Source: a virus (Duplodnaviria > Heunggongvirae > Uroviricota > Caudoviricetes). Taken from it: a DNA stretch of 33,748 nucleotides. The stretch lies in the IMG/VR virus record IMGVR_UViG_2718218139_000002; one strand, given 5' to 3'. The notes under the pieces were generated by a model. The model did no database searches. It saw only the letters and a list, made by a program, of their open reading frames with translations, and was not told where the DNA came from. Position numbers and translations under genes: made by a program. Shown piece after piece: positions 1 to 19,418 of the stretch; position 1 is the first letter of the stretch; each line of letters begins with the position of its first letter.

Positions 1-177
1 ATGGAAAAAGATCTGAAAGCGTTGCGGGAATACCTGTTACTCTCCCCTGACTATCCTGAAGTTAACGATTCTCTGGCTAATTTCTCAACTGAAGACATGA
101 CCAACGAAGAGATAGCGGAACGTTTGGGAATTGCTCCAGATTGGATGGAAACCGTAGACCCCAGCAAACTTACCTGA
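1..177 (+). CDS. small hypothetical protein, 58 aa (possibly 5'-truncated by the window edge)
   Basis: Hand translation from ATG at 1 to TGA at 175-177 gives MEKDLKALREYLLLSPDYPEVNDSLANFSTEDMTNEEIAERLGIAPDWMETVDPSKLT. It is below the size cutoff of the ORF track and is followed directly by a hairpin terminator. No family recognised. Confidence 0.4.
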   Translation: MEKDLKALREYLLLSPDYPEVNDSLANFSTEDMTNEEIAERLGIAPDWMETVDPSKLT

Positions 178-182
178 TGCAG

Positions 183-210
183 AACGCGCCTTTGCTGGGC
201 GCGTTTCTTA
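183..210 (+). terminator. rho-independent terminator-like hairpin after the small ORF
   Basis: aacgcgcc (183-190) pairs with ggcgcgtt (198-205), followed by tttctta. Confidence 0.55.
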
Positions 211-262
211 GTCTTACATATGGCTGTTAATAGCTCAATACAGATGAGATTAGCCCTGCCAT

Positions 263-292
263 TTGACTATAAGTATCTTACACCGGATAATT
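263..292 (+). promoter_or_regulatory. putative sigma70 promoter of the orphan two-gene operon
   Basis: TTGACT (263-268), 17-nt spacer, GATAAT (286-291), about 110 nt upstream of the first ORF. Sequence match only. Confidence 0.35.
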
Positions 293-402
293 CGTGCGTA
301 AAAAGTGTTCAAACATATGATTCTTGATTTTGTTTGCCACCATAGTAAGCATTTTTATGTTGCATGTAGAGATGAGAAGGCAGGTATCACTTGATTGATA
401 TA

Positions 403-2868
403 ATGAAGGTTTGGCTTATTTCTCAAAAGTGGTTCTGGAAATTAAGAACAGATCTTGTGAGGGTTAGATTTATTTTAGAACGTGCGTCATACATACATCG
501 TACGTCTGTTTTTAAAGCTAAGTCTAACGCTCATGTTTTTATGTCTTTTGCGTTGGTAGGTTTAAAAAATTTGTTATGGGTCATATTAACGTTATTTGCA
601 CTGGGTTTTGTTGAAGATTATATTCGGAATAATACGATTTTGCTTCATCCTCTTAGCTATGATGAAAAAAAATTTAATATTGATCAACTTAGGTTGTACG
701 CACAGATACTTACCGCTATATTTTCAATATACTTTGCTACAATAGGTATCATTCTAAGTGCAGGATATACCAGACTTCGGCGAGATATTATACAAATGCT
801 TACTACCGAGCAGGTAGGTAATGTGTATTCGCGGACTTTAGTGCTTTCTGCGGTGTTTTGTCTTAGTGCAACTGCTCTCCACTTGTTCGGGGTTGAACCC
901 GGTCTTTTCGTTTATGCAATGGGAACATTGCTGACACTTGTTAGTTCCTTAGCTCTGTTCCCATTAGGTCAAAGATTATTCAATTTTTTTGACCTAAATC
1001 AGTTAGCCCGAAGTGAAATACTCCCACGAATTGCACGACACATCGAAGGTGCGTCTAATCCCAAGAATTCAGTATCTTTAGCTAATCATCACTCTAAAGC
1101 CGCACATTTGGCCTTTGAGCAGTTAAACTACATTGATGATCGCCTGATATGTGAAAAAGTAGGACTCGGAGATAATTTACCTGCTCTCAGTAATGTTTAT
1201 TCGGCATTACTTCTTCATTACCTTAATCAGAAACACAGAATTGATTATCAAAGTTACTGGTTCCCTAGACGAATAAAACATAAGCAATGGTTCTTAGCTG
1301 GCGACAGTGTAACATCCATTGCTTTAAAAACAAGGAGCCAATTAACGGTTGAAGAAGAACCAAATTATCTTTGGTTAGAGAATGAAATTATCAATAGGTT
1401 GGTAGGCCATATTGAACTTGCATTCAAAGCCGGTGATTTCAAGCTCGGGTTGGATCTCATCAGTCTATTCTCATCTCGTATATTAACTTATGCACAACAG
1501 TTTCAGTTCGATATTGGTATACGTGAACTTCGGAAAATGAAGACGATCATTGAAAAAGCCTTTACACCGTCTGATGTCGTTAATTATTTTGAGGAAAAGG
1601 TGATAAAAGTTGGAATTGCGGATGCATGGGCTGCATTAGGCAGCAATCTTTGCCTTGAAATGTTACGCCGCATGATTACTTTTGAGAAAGAATTGGAGCA
1701 GTTCTTTAAAGATGATATCTGGACAGAGACCTCTCTACACACTTTGCCTGCTTTTCTGCAGGTTGAGTTGGCCTTTATCGTAGAACGTATCGAATTCGAA
1801 AAAGAGATTGAAGGACAGAGATTATCCAAACCAAAGTACGTCCAGCAGTTGGCGGTTCAGAAGTTATTACAACAATATTCTAAAATTCTGCCAGAAGTAT
1901 GCGATTTTCACGTAAACATGGTTCCAGATTTCGTTAACTCACTGATAAACATGAAGATGCCGGAAGCCGCAACGCAAGTCGTTCTCGCTAGCCTACATAA
2001 TCATTTGAAGTTTCCCCATTGGTTTAATGAACTTTCTCTGCTCTTGGAGAGATACAGAAAGTACGAGCACTACTCTGAAAAGCTATACGCATTACCAGAA
2101 ATTAATATTGCTGAAATGCTCAAACAGTTTGTCGTTACACAGGATGAAGCTATAGCTATTCTTGGTAGGGAGGAAATTGTGGGACATATCATTGAACAAG
2201 AGCAAGATGATGAACTACCGGATCATTTGGGACAGATATATTTTGAGTTGGCTGAGGAATGTATACATGCGCTTGAACAGAATGATGAAAATAAACTGAG
2301 CAAGGTATTCCCTATGTTCATGGTTCTCTCATTGCTGGCATCAGATACTAAATTTGTAGATCCGAAACTCGATATAAACAACGAGTTTCGACTGCATCTC
2401 CTTTCATCCGCGATCAACGATCTGATGTCAGTTCTAGGTTTTGCTATCCTTTACAGTGCTTATTTCGATAATGCAAAACTATCTAAAACAGTACTTGATA
2501 GGTTTAAGTCTTGGCTCGAGTCTGTTCCCAACAAACAGCAGTATTTGAAGAGAATGATGATTCTTTCAAATCCGCGCAATTTCAGCTTGTGCGCATCACC
2601 GAGAGATATGATTCGTCTTAACTGGAAAATGGAATTTGAGCGCCGCGCAAGACATGATGGCTTTAGCGATCAAATGGGAATGAATCGAGGGAAATCTCAT
2701 ACGAACAAAGTTGTCAGAGAGTTCTTAAACTCCCATTCAGATGCATCGCATCTCTTTTGTGCTCTCGAAATTTTCCCGCAACTCGAGCAAATTGACTTCA
2801 AGATCGATTACCATGTTAGTGAGTTGGCTCGTCGTTTTGGCGTGGAATACGATAAGGATTTTGAATGA
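403..2868 (+). CDS. orphan large membrane-anchored protein (~821 aa from ATG 403; 825 aa from TTG 391): four N-terminal TM helices plus a ~630-aa helical soluble domain, function unknown
   Basis: A 2.5 kb uninterrupted ORF in AT-rich DNA, which is very unlikely by chance. Hydrophobic helices FMSFALVGLKNLLWVILTLFALGF, ILTAIFSIYFATIGIILSAGY, LVLSAVFCLSATALHLFGV and LFVYAMGTLLTLVSSLALFPL. No catalytic motif recognisable by eye. Start is ambiguous: TTG 391 has GAGAAGG 10 nt upstream, ATG 403 has no SD. Confidence 0.85.
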   Translation: MKVWLISQKWFWKLRTDLVRVRFILERASYIHRTSVFKAKSNAHVFMSFALVGLKNLLWVILTLFALGFVEDYIRNNTILLHPLSYDEKKFNIDQLRLYAQILTAIFSIYFATIGIILSAGYTRLRRDIIQMLTTEQVGNVYSRTLVLSAVFCLSATALHLFGVEPGLFVYAMGTLLTLVSSLALFPLGQRLFNFFDLNQLARSEILPRIARHIEGASNPKNSVSLANHHSKAAHLAFEQLNYIDDRLICEKVGLGDNLPALSNVYSALLLHYLNQKHRIDYQSYWFPRRIKHKQWFLAGDSVTSIALKTRSQLTVEEEPNYLWLENEIINRLVGHIELAFKAGDFKLGLDLISLFSSRILTYAQQFQFDIGIRELRKMKTIIEKAFTPSDVVNYFEEKVIKVGIADAWAALGSNLCLEMLRRMITFEKELEQFFKDDIWTETSLHTLPAFLQVELAFIVERIEFEKEIEGQRLSKPKYVQQLAVQKLLQQYSKILPEVCDFHVNMVPDFVNSLINMKMPEAATQVVLASLHNHLKFPHWFNELSLLLERYRKYEHYSEKLYALPEINIAEMLKQFVVTQDEAIAILGREEIVGHIIEQEQDDELPDHLGQIYFELAEECIHALEQNDENKLSKVFPMFMVLSLLASDTKFVDPKLDINNEFRLHLLSSAINDLMSVLGFAILYSAYFDNAKLSKTVLDRFKSWLESVPNKQQYLKRMMILSNPRNFSLCASPRDMIRLNWKMEFERRARHDGFSDQMGMNRGKSHTNKVVREFLNSHSDASHLFCALEIFPQLEQIDFKIDYHVSELARRFGVEYDKDFE

Positions 2869-3857
2869 AAATTATCAAGAATATACCCCTTTACGGTTAT
2901 AGCGTCGATCCTGAGCAATTAAGTTTTGTTGATAGACTATTGACCAAGTCTAAGAATGAACGACCAGGTTTCTATCAAAGGATGTTTTATGAGGATTTTG
3001 CTAGAGTTTTTAATTTTGTAAATCACGGTGATACCAATTTGTTTCAAATCGAAACTAACGACGAAGAACTCATACGTAAAATGTTTGGAAATTTACAAGC
3101 TAGATATAGGAAATACTCGGTAGATGAAACAATACGTGAATTGGTGGAGGCAGTAGCGCAATCGTTGATTTGGCAAGGAACGGCATACTATTTTGTTCAA
3201 AACGTTTCTGAGCAAGAAAAAATACATATTACTCCTCTCGTTTCTGATAATATATTTTGTTTTTTTTCAGTGTATTTTCAGTATGTGCCGAAACGGTGTG
3301 AAAGATATTTAGAACGGGATCATGAGATGCTTCCAAGAGAATTAAGAATCTTGGATAAAAACAAACTAATGCGTTTCGAAATTCCTAGGTCCTTAAGGCA
3401 GATGTTGTCTGAACAAAATCGGACTTTAAAGATCATTGACAAGCATCAATTTGGTGTTACTAATTTTTATCCTCAAGCAACATACGAAAATCCTAACCCG
3501 AAAAGTCACTTTGATTTTAGCATTTGGAAAAATACGCAAGAGCAAGCATTATTCCGAGCTACGAGGAAAACCGGGTGGAATGGTAGAAATTATGATTCAT
3601 CAAAATGTTCTGATTTCTTCCATTACTATCGTCTTATTCGATTTAGACGGAATCAACTTATTTTACGTGATTATATATTGTTGCAATTAGGTAAAGAGCT
3701 CACAAGGGTAGGTCACCGATATAATGAGGACTTTAATGTTGTGATTTCACCAACAAGTGTTTTGCCTCAAATCGATAAACTAGATGAGATGGAATCATTA
3801 CTTTCTAGGGAGGAAATAGATTTTACTGAGGTGTCGGATTACTATTACGAACGTTGA
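2865..3857 (+). CDS. orphan soluble protein, 330 aa, translationally coupled to the upstream ORF, function unknown
   Basis: ATGA stop/start overlap at 2865-2868 and SD AAGGA (2854-2858) 6 nt before the ATG. Aromatic- and Arg-rich protein with no TM segment and no recognisable family. Confidence 0.85.
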   Translation: MKIIKNIPLYGYSVDPEQLSFVDRLLTKSKNERPGFYQRMFYEDFARVFNFVNHGDTNLFQIETNDEELIRKMFGNLQARYRKYSVDETIRELVEAVAQSLIWQGTAYYFVQNVSEQEKIHITPLVSDNIFCFFSVYFQYVPKRCERYLERDHEMLPRELRILDKNKLMRFEIPRSLRQMLSEQNRTLKIIDKHQFGVTNFYPQATYENPNPKSHFDFSIWKNTQEQALFRATRKTGWNGRNYDSSKCSDFFHYYRLIRFRRNQLILRDYILLQLGKELTRVGHRYNEDFNVVISPTSVLPQIDKLDEMESLLSREEIDFTEVSDYYYER

Positions 3858-3980
3858 GCTTAGAAAAGTAACTATCGAACATTTAACACTATCATTTCGT
3901 TTCAATCTGGAGACTTATGGTGAACGTGCCCAAATTTCGCTCAGAGCAGACTGTCAGATTCAATCGTACCTTTTAAGTTG

Positions 3981-4011
3981 ATAACGCAATTTTGCGTTAT
4001 GCTTGTTTTTT
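3981..4011 (+). terminator. terminator-like hairpin downstream of the two-gene operon
   Basis: ataacgc (3981-3987) pairs with gcgttat (3994-4000); a T6 run lies at 4006-4011. The 5-nt gap before the T-run is not ideal. Confidence 0.5.
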
Positions 4012-5020
4012 GGATGGGGATATATTTATCTCATTGATTTATATATAAATATAACGTTTATGTTGTTAGTCGTGCACGGTAAAGTTCTAGTATATGTCTC
4101 AGAATCTTCTTCAATACCTCAGGTATATTAAATGGTTAAAAGATAAAAAGCCTTTCAGAGTCGTGCTTACGCGCTCAAATTTCATGGTTGGGGATTTATA
4201 CGTGTATTCAACCCAAAAAGTGACTGAAAAAGTGCTTACAGAGTGACGTTACGTTGACGTTGTTTTCTGGTGATTTTTGCTCAGTAGTTGTTATTATATG
4301 TTTGATTATTATATATATTTTTAATATGTTGCTCACTTCAAACTCACGTCAACTCACTCTTATAGAGTGATTAATTTCTATAAGTACTTTATCTCAAAAT
4401 TTGATTTTTACGGATGGAAGCCCTTCAAAGAAACGTCATTTTTTTCTAAGACTTTGATCTTTCGTTAACGGTGTTAGTGGGGACTTCGGTCATCGAGTGC
4501 GATGCGCTCTTCTGACCGTTTCAATGGATAGGTTCGCCTTCTTGCGCCTCTCGCGGCGCTTGCCGCGCTCCGCGCTTTTGGCGATTGGGCAGGGATATTT
4601 CTCTTATATTGGTCGTTTTTTGCTCTGCCTTGTCACGATCTGTCACTACTAGTAGTAATGGTCATAACCTCCGCTTTCTCTTCTGGCTCTGGATGCTCTC
4701 ACTCGTGCTTTTCTTAACATCCTTAACAGCGGGTGGGTTTGTACTTTGTTCGAGTTTATTGTCTGTGAGGATAGTAACTCCCTGCGCTCTGTCTCTGCCT
4801 CTTTGGTGACCGCTATCACTGATAAATCCCAATCGTGTTTGCTAATTAACGGTGCTTGGAACGGGGTGATTGGTGAGCGATTTATGTCTTGTCGTTTCAA
4901 TGTACGCTGTCTGGATTCTCCTGTCAGTTAGCTTTGAGTAACGCGCCGTGATGCTTATCTCCACGGTTGCTGTCTTGCAGCTGCATTTCGCGCTACTCAA
5001 AGCCTTCTGCTTTGAATGCT

Positions 5021-5051
5021 GCCCTTCTTCAGGGCTAAATTTTTAAGAGCA
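5021..5051 (-). promoter_or_regulatory. nutL: lambda-type nutL (boxA + boxB)
   Basis: The minus strand reads tgctcttaaaaatttagccctgaagaagggc. boxB gccctgaagaagggc (5021-5035) is identical to lambda boxB as I remember it, and boxA is tgctcttaa (5043-5051). The surrounding leader matches the lambda pL leader. Confidence 0.85.
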
Positions 5052-5083
5052 TCACCTTCATGGTGGTTAGTACGTCCTGCTGA

Positions 5084-5119
5084 TGGCTAAATAGTACGAT
5101 TTGTACTTTATCGAGTCAA
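5084..5119 (-). promoter_or_regulatory. pL: pL-type early leftward promoter with embedded operator
   Basis: The minus strand reads TTGACT (5119-5114), a 17-nt spacer cgataaagtacaaatcg, TACTAT (5096-5091), then ttagcc and ATCAGCAGG, which is the lambda pL transcript start sequence. The spacer holds a CGAT...ATCG / AGTAC...GTACT symmetric element, a likely operator. Confidence 0.7.
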
Positions 5120-5182
5120 TACAAAATGTTCTAAATATAATTAGTTTTTTATAACGCTTTGTATTTAATGGGTTTATATTTT

Positions 5183-5214
5183 GGAAAAAGAAAACCCGAC
5201 GCTAAGGTCGGGTT
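5183..5214 (-). terminator. rho-independent terminator downstream of the repressor gene
   Basis: aacccgac (5193-5200) pairs with gtcgggtt (5207-5214). On the minus strand the hairpin is followed by ttttcttttt. Confidence 0.75.
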
Positions 5215-5244
5215 ATTGTTGTGTGTTTTAGAGTTGTGAGGCTG

Positions 5245-5904
5245 TTAACTAAATGTCTCTTCAGGCCACTGGCTGGCGATAACTTTCCCTACTACGGAAC
5301 AGCTATCATTGCATGGAATCATTGGATATTGCGGGTTTAGTGGCTGTAGGAACACCTGACCGCTATCCCTGATCAGTTTCTTGAAGGTAAACTCGTCACC
5401 ACCAAGTCTGGCTATGCAGAAATCACCTGGCTCAACAGCCTGCTCAGGGTCAACGAGAATTAACATCCCGTCAGGAAAGCTTGGCTTTGATCCTGTTGGC
5501 GCGGTCATGGAATTACCTTCAACTTCAAGCCAAAACGCACAATCACTGGCTTTTTTGGTTGTGCTGACCCATCTCTCCGCATCACCTTTGGTAAAGGTTC
5601 TAAGCTCAGGCGAGAACATCCCGGCCTGAACATGAGAAAAAACAGGGTACTCATATTGTTTTTTAACGGGGGCAGATGAGTATTCGCCAACAGGTGAAAA
5701 TGTACCGTCGTGGTTGAATGAGACGTTATCAATACTAAGGTATTTAAACACCACACCAATCTCGTCAAGAGATGGATGACGAGATCCGCGCAACCAGTGA
5801 CCAATTCCACCCTGCGTCATACCAAGCTCTTCAGCTAACTTCTCTTGAGTTATGCCGAGCTCTTTCATTCTGGATCTAGCCAGTTCATACCATTTCATTT
5901 TCAT
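5245..5904 (-). CDS. cI: CI-type prophage repressor (HTH N-domain plus S24/LexA-like autocleavage C-domain)
   Basis: From [21 protein letters not shown] to the end it is near-identical to lambda CI as remembered, including the Ala-Gly cleavage site (VQAGMF), GNSM (Ser nucleophile) and FKKL (Lys). The N-terminal HTH ([25 protein letters not shown]) is not lambda-like. Start chosen at MKMKW (5904); the track ORF extends to 5946. Confidence 0.9.
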
Positions 5905-5960
5905 ACCCTTATTATTACGCTCTGTACTAAAACCATCCATGCACAAGATGTATTTTTTGT

Positions 5961-17351: not shown

Positions 17352-18520
<1,169 letters not shown>

Positions 18521-19418
18521 TGGAGCACCTGTGTTGTTCTGAGGTGAGCATATCACCTCTGTTCAGGTGGCCAAATTCAGTGTGCCACTACAATTTGTGG
18601 AACTGTGCGGCAGGTATTGATGCCACCATGACGGCGATTGGTGTACCTCAGGGTATCAACCGTCGCTCTTTCTGGAACCCCTTCAACTACAAAGACCTTG
18701 CTGGCGAGCTTGGTCACCGTGCCTATGCTCAGGGCGCAACCCTGACAGCATACGAAAAAGCGCAGATCCCTCCGGTTGCGTCATTCGATAGCTACAAGAC
18801 CGATATTTCTGGTCGTGTTCCGAAGGGTACAGCAACTTCCATTACGCTGGCAGCAGCACCTGCGCACAAGGTTGAAGCGAAAGATGCTAACGATATGCCA
18901 GTGGATAACCGACAGGGGACCATTACGGTATCTGCTGAAGGTTTGCAGGTTGGCGATGCGTTTACCATCGCAGGGGTGAATTCCGTACACCAGATCACCA
19001 AAGATACCACCGGGCAGCCGCAGGTATTCCGCGTTCTGGCAGTTAGCGGAACGACAGTAACTATCTCCCCGAAAATTCTGCCGCCTGACAACGCGGATGT
19101 CGCCAGCCGTCCATATGCAAACGTTGATGCTAATGCGGCAAGTAACGCAGCAATCACCATTCTCAACAAAAATGCCGCACCGGCTAACCTGTTCTGGGCT
19201 GATGGTTCTGTTGAACTGATGTACGGCAAACTGGCGTTCCCGACTGGTCAGGGTCCACAGGTAATGACAGCAACCACCGAGCAGGGCGCTACGCTGATCA
19301 TGTCTTACGCCTTCGACCACATCAAAGGCGTAACCACTGCGCGTTTCACCACTCTGTACGGTTGCTCTGTACTGGTTCCTGAATATACGGGCATCGTTAT
19401 TGCCGGGCAGTAATTTAG

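Follow-up and report, generated by a model that had tools for sequence, protein, structure and literature searches.

An unannotated two-gene cassette of an Escherichia coli argW island as a candidate module against phages or other invading DNA

Positions 263 to 4,011 of a 33,748-nucleotide (nt) stretch of DNA, filed in IMG/VR as a Caudoviricetes record (IMGVR_UViG_2718218139_000002) and called here, at its full length, the window, hold two overlapping genes, ORF1 and ORF2 (ORF, open reading frame), for a predicted membrane protein and a smaller soluble partner. I show below that the two genes are kept together over a wide range of bacteria, that their products almost certainly act as one complex, and that the cassette is cargo of an island inserted at argW rather than a moron of the P22-like prophage beside which it now lies. 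The reading favoured for the pair, to which about an even chance is given, is that of a self-contained two-protein module directed against phages or other invading DNA and moved as exchangeable cargo of integrative elements.

Two genes kept as one unit

An earlier reading of this DNA, made from the sequence alone and referred to as the original prediction, had proposed an orphan anti-phage cassette whose two members should strictly co-occur among homologues. Indeed, ORF2 lies directly downstream of ORF1 in all 39 loci in which the contig continues (41 genome loci in total), a pairing far beyond chance. The overlap between the two genes measures 4 or 14 nt in most loci, and their divergence is coupled, the identity of one protein to the query being correlated with that of the other (r=0.95, n=38). 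ORF1-like proteins fall into 324 clusters, with listed top matches 63-74% identical and genome loci down to 42%; for ORF2 there are 266 clusters, with listed top matches at 52-63% and genome loci down to 37%. This core family amounts to about 300 clusters at 90% identity, and a homologue search repeated with a diverse alignment (A4) returned the same close family again. Its hosts are scattered through the alpha-, beta-, gamma- and deltaproteobacteria, and comprise Enterobacterales, Vibrio, Halomonas, Alteromonas and Marinobacter among the gammaproteobacteria, along with Nitrosomonas, many alphaproteobacteria and Desulfobacterales. Across these four classes the pair retains 50-75% identity, a level that implies horizontal transfer.

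The ORF2 superfamily is wider still. A profile search of 1.84 billion representative sequences collected 605 proteins at E<=1e-3, mostly of 300-340 amino acids (aa), which form about 600 clusters at 50% identity and reach the Firmicutes. In every contig inspected, the distant ORF2 members are preceded by a large overlapping gene, whose product proved ORF1-like where this was tested (hhalign probabilities of 99.8% and 97.7%). The layout persists in relatives at roughly 20-25% identity, with pairs of 852+325, 862+308 and 759+350 aa and one of 856+298 aa in Paenibacillus, where the same pair is carried on a plasmid. A metagenomic protein of 1145 aa, P0366, is a natural single-chain fusion of ORF1 and ORF2 (hhalign 99.8% for the ORF1 part). 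Its locus (L143, 10001-13438) has a chromosomal neighbourhood that includes an SNF2 helicase and an HNH_2 protein.

No third conserved gene emerged after clustering of all flanking ORFs, small upstream ORFs being common to near-identical loci only. Constant adjacency, co-divergence and the fusion together indicate that the two proteins work as one complex, a conclusion regarded as almost certain.

Predicted structures of the two proteins

The four transmembrane helices of ORF1 follow an N-terminus rich in Lys and Arg, from which an N-in/C-in topology is predicted that would leave only about 30 residues in the periplasm; ORF1 is thus predicted to be anchored in the inner membrane via its four helices, with both ends in the cytoplasm. 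The most conserved parts of the protein are the second transmembrane helix (TM2, 97% column identity) and the cytoplasmic loop that comes next (92%), which argues that the membrane domain is more than an anchor. Invariant residues of this TM2/loop-2 region are Q95, R97, Y110, G115, R126, D128 and E136, and in ORF2 a motif is made up of G237, W238, R241 and R262. In the solenoid of about 630 aa that makes up the rest of ORF1, no catalytic or enzyme-like fold was detected, and signatures of nucleases, NTPases, proteases, TIR and SIR2 were found in neither protein. An HD-like site near H595/D607/H608 of ORF1 was considered and rejected, for the distant fusion protein lacks H608. ORF2 has no hydrophobic transmembrane helices; hence the description already given in the original prediction, namely four hydrophobic helices and a long helical domain in ORF1 and a soluble ORF2, agrees with the structure predictions.

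Neither protein has a match in Pfam, NCBIfam, PHROGs or PADLOC. Pfam was equally silent on 42 ORF1 homologues and on 114 members of the ORF2 superfamily, ten distant ORF2-like proteins matched neither Pfam nor PADLOC, and searches of PDB sequences with the profiles A1, A2 and A4 gave nothing relevant. The label 'DUF2254' attached to two UniRef homologues could not be reproduced. In the open-access papers and bioRxiv preprints covered by the literature search, the pair is described nowhere.

What can be said of ORF2 comes from its predicted model. In two independent structure searches with this model, portal proteins dominate the matches; with Foldseek against BFVD, a collection of predicted viral structures, nearly all named matches are portal proteins, with probabilities up to 1.00 and low TM-scores of 0.25-0.35. 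The portal fold, defined by wing, stem, clip and crown, is seen in the predicted model, and a portal-like fold for ORF2, which the original prediction had no means of seeing, is considered likely. As judged by sequence (Pfam Phage_portal and related models) and by gene context, ORF2 is not a member of the portal family: its only conserved neighbour is ORF1, and no head-morphogenesis module accompanies it.

The HK97 portal gp3 was also compared directly. A scan of IMG/VR with gp3 brought up only relatives of at least 96% identity, of no use for building a portal profile. When alignment A4 was set against the single gp3 sequence with hhalign, the sole segment aligned was ORF2 89-110 with gp3 112-133, a helix followed by a 'G-x-A-Y' strand, with the letters TIRELVEAVAQSLIWQGTAYYF in the ORF2 superfamily and TAQEFREAMTMQLCFYGNAYAL in the HK97 portal; at a probability of 0.3%, it may mark an equivalent position.

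Carriers and neighbourhoods

In E. coli, the block that contains the cassette is present at 99.8% identity in 147 of 5426 complete genomes (2.7%), on the chromosome in all of them; a collection of plasmids gave only 3 distant matches. A case in point is strain DA33137, in which the cassette lies within an island of about 10 kilobases at a tRNA-Arg gene (argW), adjoining yfdC, the order being integrase, small regulators, rolling-circle Rep, cassette, a 58-aa gene and a serine recombinase. In related argW islands, what lies between Rep and the serine recombinase is a different single gene: a Sll1717-family P-loop ATPase of 544 aa in one (L144, 7548-9182), a ParA-like ATPase of 354 aa in another (L145, 7242-8306); for neither of these was a tie to known defence found. 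A second E. coli variant of the pair, 62% identical, sits beside a YfjJ/G2P-type gene in a CP4-57-like island.

In V. cholerae the pair closes a cI/cro element, in which it comes after RnlAB and an integrase, and a distant pair adjoins a PDC-S31 match in a P4-like element with DUF3987 and a P4-type integrase. In Proteus mirabilis it is found between fragments of icd, beside a prophage integrase, and one strain has at this site a further, tandem cassette that contains AbiGi together with a Mrr_cat-nSTAND3 protein. The tandem cassettes of this species (L048, 1-12900) are each bounded by a 73-aa icd fragment and start with a 147-aa gene; the icd site looks like an array of exchangeable defence cassettes.

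In 35 of 38 loci the cassette has a lower G+C content than its flanks, the mean difference being 9 points. Its 144 nearest neighbours, listed as a plain tally of defence and mobile genes and not as an enrichment over the genome background, include genes of the impB/mucB family, integrases and a conjugal-transfer protein, as well as genes with strong PADLOC matches to type I, type IIG and methyl-directed restriction enzymes, SngC, Upx, NERD+UvrD, type IV DinG, PDC-M60A, mad genes, AriA and PbeA. Known defence systems near the pair are RnlAB, AbiG, nSTAND, restriction-modification, Shango and PARIS, among others. Hence two traits by which defence systems are recognised, namely a location in defence islands or mobile cargo slots near known defence genes and a patchy distribution with signs of horizontal transfer, are both seen; the mobile and defence contexts foreseen in the original prediction turned up in many taxa.

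Favoured reading and its alternatives

If the pair acts against invading DNA, the predicted structures allow a scheme in three steps. On the cytoplasmic side of the membrane, ORF2 would be held by the solenoid of ORF1, probably assembled into a portal-like ring. This decoy would then be bound by a phage component whose usual partner is a portal, such as the complex of terminase with DNA, a scaffolding or head-completion protein, or else a free end of DNA. Finally, a signal would reach the near-invariant region of TM2 and loop 2 of ORF1, and the outcome could be either a leak that collapses the membrane potential, that is, an abortive infection, or the trapping of the phage component or its DNA.

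A bolder version, possible and yet on the doubtful side, regards the ORF2 superfamily as a cellular offshoot of a tailed-phage portal, exapted and tethered to the membrane via its four-helix and solenoid partner, whose ring would decoy or trap the packaging or DNA-entry machinery and trigger a membrane response. Should this be true, it would amount to a defence principle without a described counterpart and to the first portal-fold family that belongs neither to viruses nor to gene transfer agents. The predicted fold suggests that a core virion protein is mimicked at the membrane by a protein of the host; if so, phage packaging or DNA entry would be tied to a membrane effector and a viral hallmark fold would have been recruited by cells. 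Even the plainer reading has consequences, since a pair that protects its host would represent a widespread defence family missed by current detectors, to which PADLOC, Pfam, NCBIfam and PHROGs are blind.

Several observations weigh against these readings. The defence role is argued from context and distribution, and the trigger and output of the scheme are conjectural. The genes that fill the E. coli slot in its stead are orphan ATPases and not proven defence genes. The cassette block has no match in 50,697 phage genomes, and ORF1 is absent from them by tblastn as well; the ORF2 protein was not searched there. As to the fold, the best of five ORF2 models has a pLDDT (predicted local distance difference test) score of 61 and the other four lie at 42-48, while residues 187-248, the most conserved stretch, score below 50. 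No sequence link between ORF2 and portals could be shown, given the empty Pfam searches on the 114 superfamily members and the empty PDB profile search, and the hhalign comparison with HK97 gp3, at its 0.3%, is not significant.

The chief rival, unlikely though to be taken seriously, is a non-lethal blocker after the manner of Kiwa, in which ORF1 senses the perturbation of envelope or membrane at phage DNA entry and ORF2 clamps or coats the DNA, for example as a ring channel, so that replication and late transcription stop and the cell survives. The gross architecture fits, with a four-helix membrane protein coupled in one operon to a soluble protein of some 320 aa, and so does the mobile, defence-linked context; moreover, ORF2 residues 205-270, the most conserved part, are rich in Arg and Lys and contain a long helix, and a portal-like ring would encircle DNA. 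However, the PADLOC models of KwaA and KwaB and the Pfam model DUF4868 give no match, and ORF1, four times the size of KwaA, offers with its short periplasmic portion little for sensing phage attachment.

Rather less probable is a module that serves its own element, whereby the portal-like ORF2 would disturb or hijack the way in which a helper or competitor phage assembles its capsids or packages its DNA, or else the pair would stabilise the element. Phage satellites (SaPI, PICI, P4, PLE) do remodel the capsids and packaging of their helpers, and small integrase/Rep islands, a P4-like element and prophage ends are among the carriers of the pair, whose ORF2 is predicted to have a portal-like fold. 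Yet the pair also occurs in unrelated elements, as well as in chromosomal neighbourhoods in which scans of the flanks showed no integrase or other satellite-type gene; no partner such as a terminase small subunit, a capsid gene or a cos/pac module is conserved with it, and a membrane anchor is hard to square with incorporation into a capsid.

Less probable again is an addiction pair of the toxin-antitoxin type, with ORF1 as a latent membrane-permeabilising toxin restrained by ORF2, in which case the pair would stabilise its island and any effect on phages would be secondary. It would account for the tightly coupled, overlapping genes, their presence on mobile elements, the high conservation of TM2, which is rich in polar residues, and the toxin-antitoxin systems among the neighbours (RnlAB, HEPN/MNT), but it leaves the 630-aa solenoid without a role, both proteins are very large for such a system, a natural single-chain fusion exists, and the putative antitoxin lies downstream and is conserved as much as the toxin. 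An ordinary membrane protein pair outside any genetic conflict (transport, envelope stress or niche metabolism), to which the missing nuclease, NTPase, protease, TIR and SIR2 signatures and the housekeeping neighbours at some loci might point, is very improbable in view of its sporadic presence in 2.7% of E. coli genomes, its foreign base composition in 35 of 38 loci, the horizontal transfer implied across proteobacterial classes and its repeated occurrence at integrase-bearing elements beside defence genes.

Organisation of the cassette in the window

The features of the cassette and of its immediate surroundings are collected in Table 1. The arrangement supports an autonomous, translationally coupled two-gene unit without a recognisable family, as had been surmised: the two same-strand genes are joined by an ATG (2865-2867) that overlaps the TGA of ORF1 (2866-2868), the ribosome-binding site of ORF2 is where it had been placed, and the downstream hairpin is followed by a run of T. 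Regarding the promoter, the site singled out earlier matches at 10 of 12 positions and is the best promoter-like site in 1-5000; on the other hand, the region contains 12 such sites against 14.6 expected from shuffled sequence, that is, no excess, and so the promoter is plausible from its position alone and not proven.

Table 1. Positions of the cassette, its signals and adjoining features in the window
Feature	Position	Strand	Remarks
58-aa ORF of the carrier island	1..177	+	WP_001535482.1; upstream of the cassette
Terminator-like hairpin, 10 pairs	182..206	+	closes the 58-aa gene; shields the cassette
Sigma70-like promoter TTGACT-17-GATAAT	263..291	+	top-scoring site within 1-5000
Shine-Dalgarno-like AAGGCAGG	377..384	+	6 nt ahead of TTG 391
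ORF1	391..2868	+	825 aa from TTG 391 (821 aa from ATG 403); predicted inner-membrane protein, family unannotated
ORF1 membrane domain	529..966	+	four transmembrane helices, residues 43-70, 98-123, 145-165 and 167-188
ORF1 cytoplasmic domain	988..2865	+	about 630 aa; predicted all-helical alpha-solenoid
Shine-Dalgarno AAGGA of ORF2	2854..2858	+	within the end of ORF1, 6 nt ahead of ATG
ORF2	2865..3857	+	330 aa; soluble; start overlaps ORF1 stop via ATGA; predicted portal-like fold
AT-rich spacer	3858..4450		33% G+C; part of the cargo slot; no convincing ORF, no Rfam match
Intrinsic-terminator-like hairpin ATAACGCAATTTTGCGTTAT and T-run	3981..4011	+	hairpin 3981-4000; end of the transcription unit
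3' fragment of the island rolling-circle Rep gene	4649..4910	-	Pfam REP_ORF2-G2P

The start of ORF1, formerly taken to be ATG 403, is more probably TTG 391, which is the choice made in RefSeq, lies 6 nt downstream of an AGG and gives a protein that shares the beginning 'IDxLKIW' with its homologues. The block 210-4450 is AT-rich as described, with 36.9% G+C (38.7% in ORF1 and 34.8% in ORF2) against about 47-48% in the flanks; the 30-35% read earlier from single 60-nt lines was an overstatement, applying to 21 of 70 lines only. The upstream 58-aa ORF has no Pfam or PADLOC match and is not kept with the pair in other taxa. Flanking repeats that might bound the cassette were looked for and none was found, and an Rfam scan of 1-5300 gave no match.

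A deletion between two tandem argW elements

How the cassette came to adjoin a phage repressor gene can be read from the layout of the window. Positions 1-4910 are colinear with the argW island, of whose Rep gene the final 260 nt are still present, positions 4911-32664 are a P22-like prophage of the Sf101/CUS-3/Kapi1 type, and positions 32665-33748 correspond to the tRNA-Arg/yfdC side. Intact relatives of the prophage run from tRNA-Arg through intS, the tailspike, the virion and replication genes to the c2 repressor, and then the early-left genes. The window lacks both the early-left arm of the prophage and the segment of the island from int to Rep, with a breakpoint at about 4910 inside the Rep gene. 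That both segments are missing points to a deletion that removed the junction between two argW elements in tandem and placed the cassette beside the repressor gene. The cassette is therefore cargo of the argW island, and the moron beside the immunity region that the original prediction had seen is to be discarded, as is the lambda-like character given to the flanking genes, for the phage is P22-like in its virion genes. The case teaches that a deletion fusing two tandem elements can make a cassette look like a prophage moron.

The prophage is defective, though not to the extent of having all its lytic functions dead, as had been claimed: both terminase genes are gone, the portal gene is cut to its last 84 codons (residues 650-733) and the capsid gene is split, while Q, holin, the tail and ejection genes and int are intact. 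An IS600 copy has taken the place of the DNA that ran from where the lysis genes end up to the portal gene, and another IS3-family element splits the P22-type capsid gene, window positions 14235-15477 and 17421-18591 being the two IS3-family insertions.

Two other observations concern this part of the window. The stretch 4350-5100, over the Rep fragment and the junction, has an AT skew of -0.33 to -0.48, the most skewed of the first 9 kilobases, probably because the coding strand of the Rep gene, a minus-strand gene, is rich in A. Further on, in the replication/nin region of the prophage, a second AT-rich block (7950-10100; 34% G+C, 29-31% at its core) holds another orphan on the minus strand, a 590-aa ORF (8317-10089) without Pfam or PADLOC match, which could be a genuine prophage moron or a defence candidate.

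Comparison with known systems

Kiwa is the nearest in architecture. Its operon, too, has two genes, the first for an inner-membrane protein with four helices and the second for a soluble protein of about 310-330 aa; it likewise resides in defence islands and mobile elements, and in both pairs the soluble partner plausibly binds DNA. The adjacent, co-oriented pair of a membrane and a soluble gene is indeed found here; a DUF4868/KwaB profile match (Pfam at E<=1, PADLOC) and a small KwaA-profile protein are not. KwaA has about 200 aa, whereas ORF1 has about 825 with its 630-aa cytoplasmic solenoid, and the fold predicted for ORF2 is portal-like. In Rex, too, a four-helix membrane protein (RexB) is associated with a soluble partner (RexA), and the cassette happens to adjoin a cI-type repressor gene (5245-5946, minus strand); it lies, however, on the opposite strand from cI, with its own promoter and terminator, and belongs to the separate argW island, and ORF1 is about six times the size of RexB. 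No homology to RexA or RexB was seen in Pfam or PADLOC at E<=1.

The resemblance to Rex and Kiwa put forward in the original prediction holds for architecture and not for the Rex-like setting in an immunity region, while the accompanying remarks that no sequence resemblance exists and that ORF1 is several times larger were right. For Rex and Kiwa alike there was no sequence match, and no fold match turned up with the predicted models; the empty profile searches, together with an ORF1 several-fold larger than KwaA or RexB, argue that the pair is a member of neither system.

The Avs/STAND sensors of phage portal and terminase offer a conceptual parallel only, in that a large helical-repeat domain is tied to the recognition of the packaging machinery; ORF1 has neither a STAND NTPase nor an effector domain, and the portal-like protein would come from the system's own genes, serving as its bait or partner, instead of being the phage target. 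With the portals of tailed phages (HK97, SPP1, T4 and lambda types) ORF2 is predicted to share a beta-rich wing, long stem and wing helices and C-terminal crown helices, and the smallest of them come close to it in size. Unlike portals, ORF2 never lies beside terminase, scaffold or capsid genes; it is always beside, or fused with, the membrane protein.

As regards location, the pair recalls the defence slots of prophages, P4-like satellites and PICI-type islands, being likewise placed at the edge of integrase-bearing elements in slots for exchangeable cargo, such as those of the E. coli argW island, the Proteus icd cassettes, the V. cholerae int-RnlAB element and the P4-like element; it departs from them in that its carrier islands are of several unrelated types. 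In kind, then, this would be a defence cassette made of a membrane protein and a soluble partner, but one built from unrelated proteins.

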